A stretch of DNA of 64,000 nt, from NCBI GenBank assembly GCA_026209155.1, contig GCA_026209155.1_3056.1; one strand, given 5' to 3'. The notes below the pieces were generated by a model, which saw nothing but the letters and a program-made list of their open reading frames with translations, had not been told where the DNA came from and searched no databases. The translations under genes were made by a program, and so were the position numbers. This DNA comes from a phage. This document shows positions 1,782-26,810 of this stretch, piece after piece; within the stretch, counting starts at the first letter, position 1, and each line of letters opens with the position of its first letter.

Positions 1782-4046
1782 TCATAATTTACAGGATGAA
1801 CAATCTTCAGCTTTTGGAGTTTCTATTTCATAATCATCAGTACCAGAACCATCACGGGTATTATGATAATAGAAATTTTTAATGCCATAATACCATCCGT
1901 ATAGCATGTCATCAATCATTATTGACATTGGAACCTTTCCTTTTGGAAAAATCTGCGGGTCATAGTATGTATTTGCTGAAGCTGATTGACATACCCATTT
2001 CAGCATAATAGCTACCTGTGTAAGATAAGGTTTATTACCTTTCTTAGCTAATTTCCACGTATAATCATATAGGTCTATGTTATGCTCAATATTGGGCACG
2101 ACTTGATTAAAGGAACCCTCTTTTGATTCTTTAACAGAGACTGGTCCACGTGGAGGCTCGATACCGTTTGTACTGTTAGAAACTTGGGAAGATGACTCAC
2201 ATGGCATAAGTGCTGATAATGTGCTATTACGGATGCCAAAGAGCTTAAGGTCTTCCCGCAGCGACGACCAGTCACAAACGTATTTTGGAGCTGCGATTTG
2301 GTCAATCTTTTTATTGTACCAGTCGATAGGTAATTCACCTCGAGACCAACGAGTGTCTGAATAATATTCGCAAGGTCCTTTTTCTTTGGCGAGCTTAATG
2401 GATGCTTTAATGAGTCCATACTGTAATCTCTCAAATAGTTCATGTGTTAAATCGTTGGCATCTTCATAAGAAGCAAAGTTACTTGCCAGCCAAGCTGCAT
2501 AGTTTGTAACACCTACACCGAGGTTACGACGCTTTTTAGCTTTTTCTGCTTCAGGAACTGGATATCCTTGGTAATCCAAAAGATTATCAAGAGCACGAAC
2601 TTGAACTTCTGCCAATTCATTAATTTTATCTTGGTCTTGCCAGTCAAAATTATCTAGTACGAATGCAGAGAGAGTGCACAATCCAATTTCAGCATCAGGA
2701 CTATTCACATCATTTGTTGGAATAGCAATTTCACAACACAAGTTACTCTGGCGAATAGGTGCCTTTTCACGAATAAACGGAGTATAGTTATTCGTATTAT
2801 CAATGAACTGTACATAAATCCTTGCTGTTCCTGAACGTTCAGTCATGAGCAATTCAAATAGTTCACGGGCTTTAATACGCTTTTTACGAATATTAGGGTC
2901 TTTTTCTGCCGCTTCGTATAATTCACGGAAACGGTCTTGGTCTTTAAAATAAGAATAATAAAGCTCTCCACCCATTTCATGTGGACTGAACAAAGTAATG
3001 TAGTCGTTCTTTCCAAAACGTTCCATCATTAGGTCATTCAGTTGAACGCCATAATCCATATGACGAATGCGGTTTTCTTCTACGCCTTTGTTATTTTTCA
3101 AAACGAGAAGATTTTCAACTTCCAAATGCCAAATAGGATAATAAGCAGTAGCAGCGCCGCCACGAATTCCACCCTGTGAACATGATTTAACTGCAGTCTG
3201 AAAATGTTTCCAAAAAGGAATAACACCGGTATGGCGTACTTCACCCATGCCAATCTTAGAACCTTCGGCACGAATCATACCAACGTTAATACCAATTCCA
3301 GCACGTTTGGAGATATATTCAACAATTGAAGCGGAAGCCTTATTGATAGACTTCAATGAATCTCCTGCCTCAATAACAACACATGAACTAAACTGTCGAG
3401 TCGGAGTACGGCAACCAGCCATAATAGGAGTTGGCAATGAAATCTGTCGAGTAGATACTGCTTCATAAAAACGGATAACATGTTTTAATCTATCAACAGG
3501 TTCGTCTTGATGCAATGCCATTCCAATAGCCATAAATGCAAACTGTGGAGTTTCATAAATTTGACCAGTGGTTTTATCTTTAACGAGATATTTTTCTTTT
3601 AATTGCATCGCCCCGGAATAAGTAAATTCCATATCCCGCTCGTGCTTAATTTTTGATTCTAAAAATGTAATTTCTTCTGCAGAATATTTTGACAACAATT
3701 CAGGGTCATATTTACCTTCATTTACACAGTAAGAAATATGGTCAATAAATGAACGTGGTTCATATTGTCCGTAAACATGCTTACGAAGAGCAAACATTAA
3801 ACAGCGTGCAGCTACATATTGATAATCAGGCTCTTCAACTGAAATAGAATTCGCAGCAGCCTTAATTACAATGGTTTGAATGTCATCAGTGGTCATTCCA
3901 TCACGGAGATATGATTTAATATTTTCATATAATTCATAAGGATCTACAGATGTTCCTTCGGCTGCCCAAGATAAAACTTTAATAATTTTTTGCGGGTCAA
4001 AGCTCTGAGAAACACCACTACTTTTGATAACATTAATTAATTGCAT
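1782..4046 (-). CDS. nrdA: Ribonucleotide reductase large subunit
   Basis: 754 aa, same length as T4 NrdA; class I RNR alpha motifs; end signature CSSCKL-like. Confidence 0.95.
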   Translation of the reverse strand: MQLINVIKSSGVSQSFDPQKIIKVLSWAAEGTSVDPYELYENIKSYLRDGMTTDDIQTIVIKAAANSISVEEPDYQYVAARCLMFALRKHVYGQYEPRSFIDHISYCVNEGKYDPELLSKYSAEEITFLESKIKHERDMEFTYSGAMQLKEKYLVKDKTTGQIYETPQFAFMAIGMALHQDEPVDRLKHVIRFYEAVSTRQISLPTPIMAGCRTPTRQFSSCVVIEAGDSLKSINKASASIVEYISKRAGIGINVGMIRAEGSKIGMGEVRHTGVIPFWKHFQTAVKSCSQGGIRGGAATAYYPIWHLEVENLLVLKNNKGVEENRIRHMDYGVQLNDLMMERFGKNDYITLFSPHEMGGELYYSYFKDQDRFRELYEAAEKDPNIRKKRIKARELFELLMTERSGTARIYVQFIDNTNNYTPFIREKAPIRQSNLCCEIAIPTNDVNSPDAEIGLCTLSAFVLDNFDWQDQDKINELAEVQVRALDNLLDYQGYPVPEAEKAKKRRNLGVGVTNYAAWLASNFASYEDANDLTHELFERLQYGLIKASIKLAKEKGPCEYYSDTRWSRGELPIDWYNKKIDQIAAPKYVCDWSSLREDLKLFGIRNSTLSALMPCESSSQVSNSTNGIEPPRGPVSVKESKEGSFNQVVPNIEHNIDLYDYTWKLAKKGNKPYLTQVAIMLKWVCQSASANTYYDPQIFPKGKVPMSIMIDDMLYGWYYGIKNFYYHNTRDGSGTDDYEIETPKAEDCSSCKL

Positions 4047-22335: not shown

Positions 22336-23118
22336 ATGGCAGTAGTTGGAGTTCCTGGCTGGATTGGAAGTTCAGCCGTAAATGAAACGGGTCAGCGCTG
22401 GATGAGTCAAGCAGCTGGTCAATTAAGATTGGGTGTTCCTTGCTGGATGAGTCAATTTGCAGGTCGCTCAAGAGAAATAATTCACACGCTTGGAGCAGAC
22501 CATAACTTCAATGGCCAATGGTTCCGAGATAGATGTTTTGAGGCAGGTAGTACACCTATAGTGTTTAATATCACTGGAGATTTAGTATCATATTCTAAAG
22601 ATGTTCCTTTATTCTTCATGTACGGAGATACACCGAATGAATATGTTCAACTGAATATACATGGTGTAACGATTTTTGGCCGTGGCGGGAATGGCGGTAG
22701 CAATAGTCCTGGCTCAGCTGGGGGTCATTGTATTCAAAATGATATTGGTGGGAGACTAAGAATTAATAATGGTGGAGCTATTGCAGGCGGCGGTGGCGGC
22801 GGTGGAGGCGGATATTATTCTCCTTTTTCACAAATGAGATTGACCTTTGGCGGCGGCGGTGGGCGTCCGTTTGGTGCACCTGGCGGATCTATTGATATGC
22901 AATCAGGCGCGACTGGCGGTACTATTTCTGCACCTGGCTCAGGATCCGTGAATGGTATTTATAATGGTGGAAACGGTGGTGAAGTAGGTTCCGCGGGAGG
23001 TAGATGCAATATTCGCGGTCAAGGATCTGAATATAATGGCGGCGATGCTGGTTATGCTGTTATAGGGTCTGCTCCAACGTGGATAAATGTTGGAGCAATA
23101 TATGGTCCAAGAGTATAA
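22336..23118 (+). CDS. 38: Receptor-recognising adhesin gp38, long Gly-rich-motif type
   Basis: 260 aa with several poly-Gly motifs ([29 protein letters not shown]) between variable segments; immediately after gene 37. Confidence 0.85.
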
Positions 23119-23805: not shown

Positions 23806-24078
23806 TTATTTGTTCGTATACATCTCTAGATATCGATATACACCCTCAAAACCCTCGTTGAATTCGTCGATGAGGGTTTTCTTATCTTCTTGAGTTAATT
23901 CAGAAACAATTTTACGGAATGAATTCTGATTTAATTTTCTACCTTCATGCGTTACTCCAATCTCATTCAGAAATGCAATAAAATTAGCACGATTTTCAAC
24001 AATATCTTCTCTGGAAAATTTAATTAAAATAGACGCAACAGTAATAATTTCACGAACTGTATCAATATTTTTATTCAT
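23806..24078 (-). CDS. asiA: Anti-sigma-70 factor AsiA
   Basis: 90 aa; sequence MNKNIDTVREIITVASILIKFSREDIVENRANF recognised as AsiA. Confidence 0.9.
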   Translation of the reverse strand: MNKNIDTVREIITVASILIKFSREDIVENRANFIAFLNEIGVTHEGRKLNQNSFRKIVSELTQEDKKTLIDEFNEGFEGVYRYLEMYTNK

Positions 24079-24090
24079 TAACTATACCAC

Positions 24091-24243
24091 TCAATTAGTT
24101 GACTTTGTTATAATATCATCAGACGCTTGATTTGTAAACTGGTCTGTGTTATTTTCTTCAAAAATTTTTTCTACGAATTCCTTGAACGACTCGCGTTCCT
24201 GAGCTACATTATGCTCGATTACCTTTTCAAGATTATGACTCAT
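24091..24243 (-). CDS. Small acidic hypothetical protein (50 aa), not in ORF track
   Basis: ATG overlaps arn stop (ATGA); hand-translated MSHNLEKVIEHNVAQERESF... Confidence 0.35.
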   Translation of the reverse strand: MSHNLEKVIEHNVAQERESFKEFVEKIFEENNTDQFTNQASDDIITKSTN

Positions 24244-24518
24244 TCGAAATAATCTTCAATTTCGTAATCATGGACATAAATCATTATAGTTTCTAATACA
24301 TCATCAATACTTTTTCCTGGAGCTGGAATTACGTAAAAATATCCTGCTTTTGAGAGGTCTTTATAAGTTCCAATCAAGAAATCATTATTCTCAAGATGTA
24401 ACTCTTCAACTAATTCATTGACAATTGAATGGTATAGGTTTGGTAGAAACTTATATAGCTTTTCTAGAATATCAATTTTGATTGTGTATTGAACCACGGA
24501 CTGAGAATCAATAATCAT
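24240..24518 (-). CDS. arn: Anti-restriction nuclease Arn (McrBC inhibitor)
   Basis: 92 aa, acidic; length and position next to asiA as in T4. Confidence 0.8.
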   Translation of the reverse strand: MIIDSQSVVQYTIKIDILEKLYKFLPNLYHSIVNELVEELHLENNDFLIGTYKDLSKAGYFYVIPAPGKSIDDVLETIMIYVHDYEIEDYFE

Positions 24519-24601
24519 AGACCTTCCCCTTATGTTTCTGTTTGCGATTAGATTCTTTAAACGCTTTCTTCTTATCCTTATGGACAGAAGCTTTATTAAA
24601 A

Positions 24602-24820
24602 TTATGTTTTGCGACTAAATTGTTCATAGTGCTGAATTACCTCTCTTAGACATTTGCATGTGAATGAAAACTTTTTAGCTACACCACATTCAAATATATG
24701 TTCTCTTAAATCATGCGTGTCAGTATATCCCATCTCAACAATAAAATGTCTTATTAGATTTTTATCTTTATCATTGAGAGAATTAAAATAATCGGATTTT
24801 GAATTAATTTCCCTGGCCAA
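24602..24820 (-). CDS. Hypothetical protein with Cys cluster (FECGVAKKFSFTCKC)
   Basis: 72-aa ORF (arn.x-like). Confidence 0.5.
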   Translation of the reverse strand: MAREINSKSDYFNSLNDKDKNLIRHFIVEMGYTDTHDLREHIFECGVAKKFSFTCKCLREVIQHYEQFSRKT

Positions 24821-25100
24821 ATTGAATCACCTTCAGTTGACGTTTTAGTTCTTTTATCATTTCTTCGTTCATCGCAATATAAAGATCGCGTAAAGCAGGT
24901 TTTAACATTCCATTTACTGGAGAACTAAATGGACATACATAATCTTTTCCTACGAGCTTTTTGGTGAATTCCATATCACAGAACTGAAATGCCGGTTCAT
25001 TGGAATAAATTCCCCAATTAGTTGACATCATTTTATTGGCATATTCCAATGCTTGGATTTGATTAGTAATTCCATCAATTTGAAACTTTTTAATATTCAT
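24804..25100 (-). CDS. Hypothetical protein
   Basis: 98-aa ORF (arn.x-like). Confidence 0.5.
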   Translation of the reverse strand: MNIKKFQIDGITNQIQALEYANKMMSTNWGIYSNEPAFQFCDMEFTKKLVGKDYVCPFSSPVNGMLKPALRDLYIAMNEEMIKELKRQLKVIQFGQGN

Positions 25101-25561
25101 TAGTAAAGGTCCTCAGAGTAAAGTTCTTTTTCACTACCACCGCGTTCAATACGTACTTGTCCAGCGTAAGTTGCAATAATCATTGCTTCTTCACGTGTCC
25201 AATAATTACTATATTGGTCAATAAACCCTTGGTCATCATCACAAACTTGCTGAGTAACTAATTGGGGTTTAACTACATCTAAAACTTCTGCCATATCTTT
25301 AGAATAATGACGAGCACCCGGAATAATAAGAGTTCGTCCATCTTTTAATTTAAAACGGTTGGCTGCGCAAACAATTCGTCGTTGATACTTTTGGTTTTCA
25401 TCCCAGTATGCAGACTGCCAGCAAATTTCAGGAACTTCTTTCAGAATATCTTCTTCTGTGCATTTATAACCATGTGCTTTAAATTTTTGAACAAGACTTT
25501 CTGGAGTCTCACGAGATAAAGGAACATTCAACATTTTTAAACGATTAATAAATGGGTTCAT
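25100..25561 (-). CDS. Hypothetical protein
   Basis: 153-aa ORF, start/stop overlap with neighbours. Confidence 0.55.
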
Positions 25562-25887
25562 TTAAACCATCCTTTAATACGCTGCCACAAAGTTTTCTGT
25601 TGAGCTTTGTTAACACCAATTGAACGAATAACCGGTTGAGATTCCTGGAATTCTTTATAATCAGCAAGGTAAATTTCGTAAGCTGAATCCGTAAAGGAAC
25701 TTATCGCTGCCATGAAATTATTGCGAATACCTACTGGAGCATCTTTACTTTCACGAATAATCATGTATTTGCCAGTCTTAATCTTTACAATAGTTCCAAG
25801 ATAAGCCCCATGGTACCAAATGTCCCATCCCTCTTGAGTAGGTTCTGCGCAACGACGAAGTTCATTGACAATTTCTAACTTGTTCAT
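25558..25887 (-). CDS. Hypothetical protein (motA.1-like)
   Basis: 109-aa ORF directly downstream of motA. Confidence 0.5.
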
Positions 25888-25897
25888 TATTTATTCC

Positions 25898-26533
25898 TCA
25901 CAGTTCAGATGCTACGGTGATTACAGCTTCAATGTTTTCTGCTGAGCGTTTAATGTCAAGATACACATTACCGTTTTTAGCGATTTTACATGACATTCCG
26001 ATATCAATAAATTTCTGAATATGATGTTCCATCATTTTGTATCCAAAAATTCGCATATTTCCATTATTGTTAATTTCAAAATTGCGAATTCCGTGAGTGC
26101 GTTTTTCTAAAATGGCAAGATAATTACTACGATAAGTTTCAACCTTTTTAAGAACAAATCCATTTTCATCTAAAAGTTTTAGCATGTGGTCTTTATCTTC
26201 TTCCATATCGGAAGTAATCTCACGAGCTTTACGAGTTGCTCGTTTTTTCAGTAGTTCCGGAGCATTTTCTTGCGCGTATAAAGTTGCTGCATTTGAAATA
26301 ATATCCTGAGCTTCACCAGTAATGATTAATCCATCACCAGATTTCTCCACCAGGCCTTTTTTAATCAATACCCCAATATTACTATTAACTACTGCGTTAC
26401 CTAAATCTGGATGCACCTCACGAACTTCTGCAGCTGTAATGAAATCTTTCTTAGCAATAGTAATTAAAATCGCAGCAGTTTTTTCATTCAGAACATCGTT
26501 AGAAGCTTTGATGATGTAAGTTACTTTAGACAT
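25898..26533 (-). CDS. motA: Middle-transcription activator MotA
   Basis: 211 aa as in T4 MotA; N-terminus MSKVTYIIKASNDVLNEKTAAILITIAKKDFITAAEVREVHPDLGN. Confidence 0.9.
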   Translation of the reverse strand: MSKVTYIIKASNDVLNEKTAAILITIAKKDFITAAEVREVHPDLGNAVVNSNIGVLIKKGLVEKSGDGLIITGEAQDIISNAATLYAQENAPELLKKRATRKAREITSDMEEDKDHMLKLLDENGFVLKKVETYRSNYLAILEKRTHGIRNFEINNNGNMRIFGYKMMEHHIQKFIDIGMSCKIAKNGNVYLDIKRSAENIEAVITVASEL

Positions 26534-26559: not shown

Positions 26560-26605
26560 GTAGTTGATAGTTGTATAGTACCACAGTATGCTTTGGTTGT
26601 AAACC
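26560..26605 (-). promoter_or_regulatory. T4-type early promoter for motA
   Basis: Minus-strand GGTTTAC-17 nt-TACTATAC, conserved leader, Shine-Dalgarno GGAG then motA ATG. Confidence 0.55.
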
Positions 26606-26623: not shown

Positions 26624-26655
26624 TGAAATAAAAAAGGGAGAGCCTCGGCTCTCCC
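26624..26655 (-). terminator. Rho-independent terminator downstream of gene 52 / small ORF
   Basis: Minus-strand GGGAGAGCC-GAG-GCUCUCCC followed by UUUUUUAUUU. Confidence 0.65.
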
Positions 26656-26660
26656 TAAAA

Positions 26661-26810
26661 TTACTGCATGACTGTGATAACTGTCATGATAACACGTTGA
26701 ATTCCGAACGCAAGAAGACCTCCTGCTACGGCTGGAACAACGCCTAAACCCGCTAGTAAAATGCCGCCAGATACTAATGCTGCGCTTGTAATACCTATAA
26801 ATGGACTCAT
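26661..26810 (-). CDS. Small hydrophobic Gly-rich membrane peptide (49 aa), not in ORF track
   Basis: ATG overlaps gene 52 stop (ATGA); hand-translated MSPFIGITSAALVSGGILLAGLGVVPAVAGGLLAFGIQRVIMTVITVMQ. Confidence 0.45.
   Translation of the reverse strand: MSPFIGITSAALVSGGILLAGLGVVPAVAGGLLAFGIQRVIMTVITVMQ

Follow-up and report, generated by a model that had tools for sequence, protein, structure and literature searches.

The closest described counterparts of the locus analyzed here are the motA–asiA region of phage T4 and the arn operon of phage T2. One of its products, Arn, is known from the literature as a DNA-mimic inhibitor of McrBC that also inhibits PUA-Cal-HAD. Supplements of a T4 omics study with a time-resolved proteome assign the RNA of each of the six named ORFs to the early class (PMC9697503); arn, arn.2, arn.3, arn.4 and motA show early RNA together with early protein, arn.1 is classed as a middle protein and asiA.1 as a late protein (PMC9697503). 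Knock-down of these genes in T4 by CRISPRi-ART was scored as ‘Not Fit’ throughout, as it was for motA and asiA (PMC11879866, supplement file 15). For T2, a 2026 preprint describes arn.4 to arn as one transcript that is guarded from RNase E by the host sRNA ArcZ, which base-pairs with the 3' end of arn.2 (bioRxiv 10.64898/2026.06.19.733364). The same preprint places the ArcZ site of T2 arn.2 at +285 to +294, treats the 70-nt stretch upstream of the annotated arn.1 as intergenic, reports His-Arn.2 by immunoblot and lists the functions of arn.1 to arn.4, asiA.1 and the DUF7230 ORF as unknown; it assigns the cluster to the ‘middle’ class, in contrast to the ‘early’ class given by the T4 omics data (PMC9697503).

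We compared with these systems a block at positions 23806-26533 (minus strand) of a 64,000-nt stretch of phage DNA, hereafter the window. By its sequence, this block is the asiA, asiA.1, arn, arn.1–arn.4 and motA region of a Tequatrovirus. Very probably, it constitutes a standard T4-type early transcription unit of this genus, located between gene t and gene 52.

Identity and gene order of the block

Nucleotide identity to T4 and its relatives is around 97%, with 97.7% for the best phage record, and sequence searches returned 478 phage records that cover the block over its full length. The order of genes is motA, arn.4, arn.3, arn.2, arn.1, a 39-aa DUF7230 gene (orf39), arn, asiA.1 and asiA, matching AR1, bov9_1 and T4. 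In T4 (NC_000866, 160878-163602), the same genes are arranged identically and point the same way, protein identities are 94-100% (95-100% in the tblastn comparison) and the flanks also agree, with holin t on one side and motA.1 plus gene 52 on the other. The phage is nevertheless distinct from T4, as its gp38 belongs to a 260-aa glycine-rich type that contrasts with the 183-aa gp38 of T4. Where T4 RefSeq departs from our reading (arn.1, arn.4 and the 39-aa gene), the difference lies in the annotation and not in the T4 sequence itself.

The outer genes were readily assigned. MotA (25898..26533, minus strand, 211 aa), the activator of middle transcription, matched the Pfam models MotA_activ (E 4.6e-61) and MotCF (E 1.7e-65), together PF09114 and PF09158, and is 97% identical to T4 MotA. 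The anti-sigma-70 factor AsiA (23806..24078, minus strand, 90 aa; PF09010, E 1e-42) is 100% identical to its T4 counterpart, and arn (24240..24518, minus strand, 92 aa) encodes a DM_Arn protein (PF22134, E 2.4e-53). These signature domains bear out the AsiA, Arn and MotA identifications of a preliminary description of this DNA. Every ORF listed there is encoded by the minus strand, no more than a few bases away from the position given. Its four ORFs of 72, 98, 153 and 109 aa correspond to arn.1, arn.2, arn.3 and arn.4, respectively, and its acidic 50-aa ORF to asiA.1. It had presented these as unknown; they are real genes, but they are not new, carrying the T4 names arn.1–arn.4 and asiA.1 and, for one further ORF, a Pfam DUF. 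That additional ORF, a small basic frame reported as missing from the gene track (~38 aa, 24500-24615), indeed exists as a 39-aa gene at 24508-24627 that T4 RefSeq leaves unannotated. All genes of the block are thus already catalogued, and the block represents textbook T4 biology; what is new concerns the annotation level, where some entries of the T4 reference need correcting.

The seven ORFs from arn.4 to asiA.1 abut or overlap by 4, 1, 17, 26, 11 and 4 nt and may be translationally coupled. The absence of a non-coding gap in this interval follows from reading arn.1 as a 72-aa gene and from counting the 39-aa ORF. Transcription would start at a sigma-70-type early-promoter-like site upstream of motA (26575..26603, minus strand), composed of GTTTACA, a 17-nt spacer and TG-n-TACTAT (9/12 matches with an extended -10 TG); a transcript through motA and the arn genes probably begins there. 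A second such site for asiA lies within asiA.1 (24110..24138, minus strand; GTTTACA, 17 nt, TG-n-TATTAT; 10/12 matches, TG present). The site upstream of motA matches the T4 early-promoter consensus. Terminator-like sites, together with these promoter-like ones, are in line with such a unit. The promoter scan as a whole gave 12 sites as compared to 13.2 +/- 3.9 in shuffled sequence and, hence, no excess. On the coding strand of the block, no Mot box matching TGCTTnA plus TAnnnT was detected, and known RNA families gave no match at E <= 1.

Conservation and coding status of the small genes

Variable sites across nine Tequatrovirus loci were used for a codon-position test. Third positions accounted for 35/43 variable sites in arn.3 (25100..25561, minus strand, 153 aa), 29/33 in arn.4 (25558..25887, minus strand, 109 aa), 15/21 in arn.1 (24602..24820, minus strand) and all four in orf39 (24508..24627, minus strand). 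The sole ORF without a codon-position signal was asiA.1 (24091..24243, minus strand, 50 aa; phrog_3762, E 7e-38), with seven variable sites distributed 2/2/3. At the level of sequence comparison, the small ORFs, asiA.1 possibly excepted, are thereby shown to be under purifying selection as proteins. The asiA.1 translation is acidic (11 D/E versus 5 K/R); it is intact in all Tequatrovirus loci and absent or only faintly matched outside the genus. For arn.2 (24804..25100, minus strand, 98 aa; phrog_1844, E 1.2e-50), identities were 94-98% in Tequatrovirus loci and 39-63% in most of the diverged ones, with six loci lacking the gene. The arn.4 gene encodes 109 aa and not the 68 aa of T4 RefSeq, which contains only the last 68 residues.

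Gene content was surveyed in 30 T4-like loci, 27 of which were retrieved from IMG/VR with arn.3 as the query, so that arn.3 is present in those 27 by construction. In all 30, arn.4, arn.3 and the 39-aa ORF lie between motA and asiA, while arn, arn.1, arn.2 and asiA.1 vary in their presence and arn itself is limited to Tequatrovirus. This distribution weakens guilt by association with arn, since arn is confined to one genus and the other three genes are kept in all 30 loci.

The 39-aa product is lysine-rich and scores 44.9 bits with Pfam DUF7230 (PF23876; cut-off 27); it also falls into phrog_1359. All 23 sequences tested, comprising the ORF and 22 relatives, exceeded the PF23876 gathering threshold. 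Matches to orf39 occurred in 30/30 loci, partial in two, and the T4 copy is 100% identical. No other small gene of the block is retained as widely, even though this one is unannotated in T4; AR1 annotates it as ar1_264. It shares 26 nt with the 3' end of arn.1 and 11 nt with the 5' end of arn. Among diverged T4-like phages, pN/pS was 0.13/0.80 in its own frame (ratio 0.17) and exceeded 1.5 in the two other frames. No paralogs were found elsewhere in the window. An exhaustive search with the peptide returned six representatives, the query being too short to go further. The literature searched contained no mention of DUF7230 and nothing on T4 ribosome profiling of small proteins, and the T4 knock-down gene table has no row for this gene.

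Possible roles of Arn.3 and the other small proteins

The preliminary description had proposed host-interaction functions for the small ORFs on the basis of their placement, an idea that evident homologs among structural or metabolic proteins would contradict. Searches of Pfam, NCBIfam, PADLOC and PDB sequences with the small ORFs returned nothing above threshold and, hence, no such homology, and sequence and fold searches combined revealed no characterized relative. Arn shares the operon and early timing with Arn.1–Arn.4 and is related to them neither in sequence nor in fold; the ‘arn.’ prefix records map position only. It also differs from the 39-aa peptide in being acidic, while the latter is strongly basic. 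The label ‘anti-restriction nuclease’ carried by several arn.1, arn.3 and arn.4 homologs appears to have been propagated from the gene name and found no support here; Pfam, NCBIfam and PDB revealed neither a nuclease nor a nuclease-inhibitor domain.

We favor a reading in which the small proteins would be early, accessory and dispensable and would target host components or defenses, as Arn does. In the T4 data, knock-down carries no fitness cost in a laboratory host; the guides of that genome-wide screen for arn.1 and arn.4 were aimed at probably internal codons. Early timing in T4, the ‘Not Fit’ scores, patchy presence, co-transcription with arn and the occurrence of the Arn.3 fold in polyvalent-protein entries provide circumstantial support, and a combination of early expression, conservation and dispensability in the laboratory is the usual profile of anti-defense and takeover genes. 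The best hint is the recurrence of the Arn.3 core domain in many phage families, in prophage-like contigs and, with weak fold scores, within large polyvalent proteins. A host-interaction role is plausible, if unproven.

Arn.3 is, as judged from its structural model, the best candidate for a specific biochemical function. The protein consists of a variable N-terminal helical part and a conserved core of ~110 aa (residues ~45-153) with the motifs QRRIVCAAN, GxRH, QGF[IV]DQ, Y/F-x-x-R-x-EA, AGQ and a C-terminal LFSEDLY. Twelve residues are invariant (R61, A66, A67, R84, H85, Q111, G112, F113, D115, Y120, R123 and Q135), and the model (pLDDT 90.6) features an alpha/beta core. This confidently predicted core and its invariant Arg, His, Asp, Tyr and Gln suggest a pocket for a small ligand or nucleotide, at R84, H85, D115, Y120 and R123, and the confident model offers an obvious residue set for mutation. 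Foldseek matched the fold to proteins of phages of Erwinia, Acinetobacter, Pseudomonas and Agrobacterium and of uncultured phages. Standalone homologs were located on contigs from genomes of Proteobacteria, Anaerolineales and Bacteroidota, in one case beside an integrase-like ORF. The domain would, thus, be spread over unrelated phages and prophage-like elements. Its core also superposes on parts of three entries named ‘Large polyvalent protein associated domain-containing protein’, but the matches are weak (Foldseek E 1.9e-3, 2.2e-3 and 2.3e-2; 20-25% identity; query TM-score 0.35), and none of 71 homologs hit a Pfam LPD family. The polyvalent proteins of phages and plasmids are proposed to be early-acting effectors directed against the host; Arn.3 differs from them as a standalone 153-aa protein made after infection, and the account of polyvalent proteins by Iyer et al. 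2017 (PMC5512222) does not mention Arn. PADLOC hits of Arn.3 to PD-T4-9_B and of Arn.4 to REase_II (E ~0.003-0.005 over short stretches; for REase_II, 0.003 over 42 residues) were treated as noise.

For the lysine-rich 39-aa peptide, the most likely ligand would be nucleic acid or some other polyanion. An ArfA-like function in ribosome rescue, considered because of its V-x-K-D-K-K ... R-K-Q-K-H pattern, was rejected, with no PDB profile match at E <= 10 and an hhalign probability of 0.4% against ArfA. We regard it as an unlikely extension that Arn.3 is the prototype of an effector domain hitherto unrecognized yet common to many phages and mobile elements. Its pocket of invariant residues would then bind or process a small molecule of the host, for example, a nucleotide signal, in a new kind of early counter-defense or takeover, and the DUF7230 peptide would be a conserved takeover factor.

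A different role is conceivable for arn.4, arn.3 and the 39-aa ORF, which might serve the early-to-middle transcription switch of the phage itself, for example, as RNA polymerase factors acting with MotA and AsiA. The three genes are early like motA and asiA and keep their place between them in every surveyed locus (for arn.3, by construction in 27), also where arn is missing, a pattern that fits a role in the phage’s own transcription as well as it fits counter-defense. The wider occurrence of the Arn.3 domain, in phages and in prophage-like contigs, may speak against this, and knock-down in T4 had no fitness effect, yet this last point carries over to motA and asiA, which were scored likewise. 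On balance, we consider a function in the switch improbable.

Still less probable is that the uncharacterized ORFs lack any function for the phage and represent neutral or selfish passengers, for instance, relics of mobile cassettes. The fact that arn, arn.1, arn.2 and asiA.1 are missing from some T4-like phages and the lack of a laboratory fitness effect would suit such passengers, but strong purifying selection on arn.1, arn.3, arn.4 and orf39, the fixed position and order of the genes and their presumed tight translational coupling argue against them, as does the absence of homing-endonuclease, transposase or toxin-antitoxin signatures in Pfam, PADLOC and NCBIfam searches.

The arn.1 start and the ArcZ and putative RNase E sites

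Comparative sequence evidence indicates that arn.1 encodes 72 aa from a TTG start rather than 43 aa. A Shine-Dalgarno-like GAAGGTGA lies 7 nt upstream of this TTG, and phrog_4452 holds the 72-aa form; T4 RefSeq lists the last 43 residues only (24602-24733). In diverged relatives, the homologous start codon is ATG, and Leu takes the place of the annotated Met30 of T4. Values of pN/pS were similar for the 29-codon extension (0.30/0.74) and the remainder (0.26/0.68), all nine variable sites of the extension within Tequatrovirus are synonymous and nine of the 19 invariant columns of the protein fall within it. The notion that some small ORFs are not genes at all, with the arn.1 extension, asiA.1 and the 39-aa ORF being chance frames over regulatory RNA or DNA, draws on the 43-aa T4 RefSeq model with its 70-nt upstream gap, the preprint’s handling of that gap as intergenic, the TTG start, the unannotated 39-aa ORF and, for asiA.1, the lack of third-position bias and the promoter-like site inside it, but it is very unlikely given the ATG starts, Leu30 and even selection across arn.1, the in-frame constraint and Pfam family of orf39 and the protein-level class of asiA.1 in T4 with its ORF intact throughout Tequatrovirus, and for arn.1 and orf39 the sequence data largely refute it.

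The product of arn.1 resisted assignment. A helix-turn-helix (HTH) DNA-binding fold was dropped, as Pfam hits of 14 homologs at E <= 1 included no HTH family. Similarity to bS18 was sub-significant in every comparison (PDB profile E 0.39 over 32 residues; hhalign probability 16%; Pfam Ribosomal_S18 in one of 14 Arn.1 members at E 0.17).

The revised start bears on the control reported for T2. The window carries CCAGGGAAAU (24807..24816, minus strand), a perfect 10-nt complement of AUUUCCCUGG in ArcZ of E. coli K-12. This is the site reported for T2 arn.2; it falls within the last arn.2 codons and at the same time covers codons 2-5 of the 72-aa arn.1. In the comparison with diverged T4-like phages, this motif was restricted to Tequatrovirus loci. 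RNAduplex energies for ArcZ and the arn.2/arn.1 junction (-25.3) were no better than those of shuffles (-23.6 +/- 3.7); the evidence for pairing therefore consists of the exact complement and the RIL-seq data of the preprint. The putative RNase E site of the preprint (24745..24749, minus strand), which precedes the annotated arn.1 ATG by 11 nt, reads ACAUU here and GCAUU in T4 and is located inside codons R24-H25-F26 of the longer frame.

The T2 arn operon and this block, thus, share the ArcZ complement and an RNase E-type motif, the first base of the latter being A here as opposed to G in T4. The two accounts diverge in what these elements are embedded in. With arn.1 read as 72 aa from its TTG, the ‘70-nt intergenic region’ of the preprint would be coding, the ArcZ site would cover arn.1 codons 2-5 and the RNase E motif would belong to codons 24-26. 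If T2 carries the CGGCAUUUU of T4, the GcAGG mutant of the preprint would also change His25 to Gln and the invariant Phe26 to Val in Arn.1. On comparative evidence, the intergenic region central to the T2 model, thus, appears to be the conserved N-terminal third of Arn.1, with the ArcZ site placed on the arn.1 initiation region.

Identity and layout of the block

The nine consecutive ORFs on the minus strand of window positions 23806-26533 constitute a T4-type motA-arn-asiA early region and agree with it in every feature that could be tested. A 3-kb query across the block matched 823 phage records, the best at 97.7% identity, and at least 80% of the query was covered in 478 of them; the matching records belonged almost exclusively to Tequatrovirus phages of Escherichia, Shigella or Yersinia. 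Comparison of annotated regions revealed a layout common to the window, phages AR1 and bov9_1, and T4: the holin gene t on the plus strand and, on the minus strand, asiA, asiA.1, arn, arn.1-arn.4, motA, motA.1 and gene 52. Pfam searches identified minus-strand AsiA (E = 1e-42), the DNA mimic Arn (E = 2.4e-53) and both domains of MotA. The unnamed ORFs of 72, 98, 153 and 109 aa in the preliminary description correspond to arn.1, arn.2, arn.3 and arn.4, and its 50-aa acidic ORF to asiA.1. The small basic ORF that it had also noticed is real, with 39 aa (24508-24627, minus strand), an above-threshold Pfam match to DUF7230 and membership in phrog_1359. All members of the block are already named or fall into a known family, and the block itself is known; our analysis adds annotation corrections and a model of Arn.3. 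The phage differs from T4 in gp38 (22336-23118, plus strand), which has 260 aa and long stretches of glycine, matches the AR1 and bov9_1 proteins labelled 'receptor recognition protein' or 'tail fibers protein', and is unlike the 183-aa gp38 assembly factor of T4, therefore placing the phage in the T2-like adhesin group and not with T4 itself.

Reading frames of arn.1, arn.4 and the 39-aa ORF

Codon patterns and conservation indicate that arn.1 encodes 72 aa, as the preliminary description had it, and not the 43 aa of T4 RefSeq. The longer form already exists in PHROG 4452 and in some GenBank records. T4 arn.1 is annotated from an ATG homologous to window position 24733, leaving a 70-nt gap after arn.2 and omitting an N-terminus encoded at 24734-24820 (minus strand; about 161806-161892 in T4 NC_000866). 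In diverged T4-like contigs, the peptide encoded by the 29 upstream codons is conserved (44-69% identity) and continues in frame, without a break, into the rest of arn.1. These relatives start with ATG where the window, like other Tequatrovirus loci, has TTG (24820), and nine of ten replace the annotated T4 Met30 by Leu. Selection on the extension (pN/pS 0.30/0.74) is the same as on the rest of arn.1 (0.26/0.68); within Tequatrovirus, none of the nine variable sites of the 87-nt extension alters the protein, even where an arginine codon carries a double change (AGA/CGG). Of the 19 columns invariant in the Arn.1 family, nine fall in the extension (Y11, F12, N13, N16, K20, I23, F26, I27 and E29), and a Shine-Dalgarno-like GAAGGTGA precedes the TTG by 7 nt.

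By similar evidence, arn.4 comprises 109 aa, not the 68 aa of T4 RefSeq, which starts at an internal Met and omits 25765-25887 (minus strand; 3335-3457 of the T4 locus L003). T4 retains the full 109-aa ORF (98% identity), and the first 41 residues of this ORF include 14 of 19 invariant Arn.4 columns, with 15 of 16 variable sites at the third codon position. The 39-aa ORF, unannotated in T4 despite 100% identity, is likewise a real gene. It was matched in all 30 T4-like loci (two partially), including loci lacking arn, arn.1 or asiA.1, its pN/pS is 0.13/0.80 in frame whereas both other frames give ratios above 1.5, and the peptide retains the pattern MNN[LP]VAKHDFNK..[VA]HKD+K+ ... RKQKHKGK.

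Across nine Tequatrovirus loci, variable sites concentrated at third positions in asiA (13/15), arn (19/28), the 39-aa ORF (4/4), arn.1 (15/21), arn.3 (35/43), arn.4 (29/33) and motA (41/51), with weaker constraint on arn.2 (25/41). Only asiA.1 lacked codon-position bias (seven variable sites, 2/2/3), and its protein coding is therefore not proven by sequence alone. This ORF (24091-24243) is essentially confined to Tequatrovirus and houses an early-promoter-like site for asiA. Time-resolved T4 omics list arn, arn.2, arn.3, arn.4 and motA as "early RNA, early protein", arn.1 as "early RNA, middle protein" and asiA.1 as "early RNA, late protein" (PMC9697503 supplements); we take an assigned protein class to imply that the protein was detected. 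With these corrections, arn.4 to asiA.1 form an unbroken run of seven ORFs, adjoining or overlapping by 4, 1, 17, 26, 11 and 4 nt and leaving no non-coding gap, arranged as in a translationally coupled operon.

Candidate functions of the arn neighbours

The DNA mimic Arn is an inhibitor of McrBC; T4 Arn additionally inhibits a PUA-Cal-HAD defence (PMC12871103). The functions of arn.1-arn.4 are stated to be unknown (bioRxiv 10.64898/2026.06.19.733364). The preliminary proposal that these neighbours may interact with the host, a conjecture that the literature shares, is a reasonable hypothesis uncontradicted by our searches. A live rival is that arn.4, arn.3 and the 39-aa peptide serve the phage's own transcription takeover, since across the 30 loci they accompany motA and asiA rather than arn (arn.3 by construction in the 27 loci retrieved with it).

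For host interaction, the best available support, although only an inference, comes from the spread and module-like appearance of Arn.3. A confident AlphaFold2 model (pLDDT 90.6, pTM 0.86), built from an alignment of 71 homologues, comprises a variable three-helix N-terminus and a beta-beta-beta-beta-alpha-beta-alpha core, and 12 residues are invariant in the alignment (R61, A66, A67, R84, H85, Q111, G112, F113, D115, Y120, R123 and Q135). The domain looks like a ligand-binding or catalytic module. A scan of bacterial genomes uncovered standalone Arn.3-like ORFs in metagenome-assembled contigs of Proteobacteria (L032 5803-6267, 154 aa) and Bacteroidota (L034 5860-6219, 119 aa), as well as a match in an Anaerolineales contig (L033 6001-6279). 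In the Proteobacteria contig, a 438-aa integrase-like ORF about 500 bp downstream points to either a prophage or an integrative element. The domain thus occurs widely among mobile elements and is restricted neither to T4 nor to E. coli.

For arn.1-arn.4 and asiA.1, Pfam, NCBIfam and PADLOC returned no above-threshold match, and PDB sequence searches no significant one. Homologues from a wider protein database carry precomputed Pfam assignments (PF26092 for Arn.3, PF26821 for Arn.4, PF26827 for Arn.1), which were not matched in scans of our local Pfam copy and had no mention in the searchable literature. For Arn.4, only a weak model was obtained (pLDDT 66), and searching with this fold gave no informative match. 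Arn.1 showed no HTH signal; its residues 27-58 (window 24605-24820) resembled the core of bS18, a protein of similar length (65-75 aa), below significance (PDB profile E = 0.39, hhalign probability 16%) through the motif E-[IL]-x-Y-x-D-V-x-x-L-x-x-x-I-x-E-x-G ... T-G-x-C. A likeness of the 39-aa peptide to ArfA was rejected by similarity search.

In T4 CRISPRi-ART, asiA.1, arn, arn.1-4, motA and motA.1 all scored "Not Fit" (PMC11879866 supplement file 15). The arn.1 and arn.4 guides were centred on annotated starts (about 161775-161835 and about 162803-162858, respectively; supplement files 15 and 25), which are probably internal in both genes, and the T4 gene table has no row for the 39-aa ORF between arn and arn.1. 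For arn.1, arn.4 and the 39-aa ORF, "Not Fit" may therefore carry no information.

Transcription signals and RNA control

Two minus-strand sites of sigma-70 type each combine GTTTACA with an extended -10 element; one precedes motA (26603-26575), the other precedes asiA from inside asiA.1 (24138-24110). As the scan overall found promoter-like sites no more numerous than in shuffled sequence, reading these two as promoters rests on their resemblance to T4 early promoters. A strong terminator-like hairpin (26635-26656; nine pairs, six G-C) follows motA.1 (26661-26810), which encodes a very hydrophobic, Gly/Ala/Val-rich protein of 49 aa (phrog_3487); in this gene, third positions account for 10 of the 11 variable sites. 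The block contained neither a MotA box nor an Rfam match. A further 14-bp hairpin, AAAACCCTCGTTGAATTCGTCGATGAGGGTTTT (23848-23880, plus strand), comes after the convergent holin gene t, within the 3' portion of asiA. It could terminate the late t transcript, in which case the terminator would lie antisense in the asiA coding sequence.

According to a June 2026 preprint, T2 transcribes arn.4 through arn as one unit, and pairing of the host sRNA ArcZ with arn.2 (+285 to +294) shields this transcript from RNase E, which acts at a GcAUU motif in a "70-nt intergenic region" (bioRxiv 10.64898/2026.06.19.733364). Both elements are present in the window: CCAGGGAAAU at 24816-24807 (minus strand) is complementary at every base to AUUUCCCUGG of the E. 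coli K-12 ArcZ, and ACAUU (GCAUU in T4) lies at 24749-24745 (minus strand), 11 nt before the annotated arn.1 ATG. The computed duplex energy was no better than for shuffled sequence and so adds nothing to the RIL-seq evidence. Among the 30 loci, the ArcZ-complementary CCAGGGAA occurs only in Tequatrovirus, in exactly those with a TTG-start arn.1, and is absent from the ATG-start relatives. In contrast to the published layout, both elements fall inside the 72-aa arn.1, the ArcZ site on codons 2-5 and the RNase E motif on codons R24-H25-F26. Given the conserved 29-residue N-terminus of Arn.1, the "70-nt intergenic region" is therefore coding, and if T2 shares CGGCAUUUU with T4, the GcAGG mutant of the preprint would also carry H25Q and F26V, the latter at an invariant residue.
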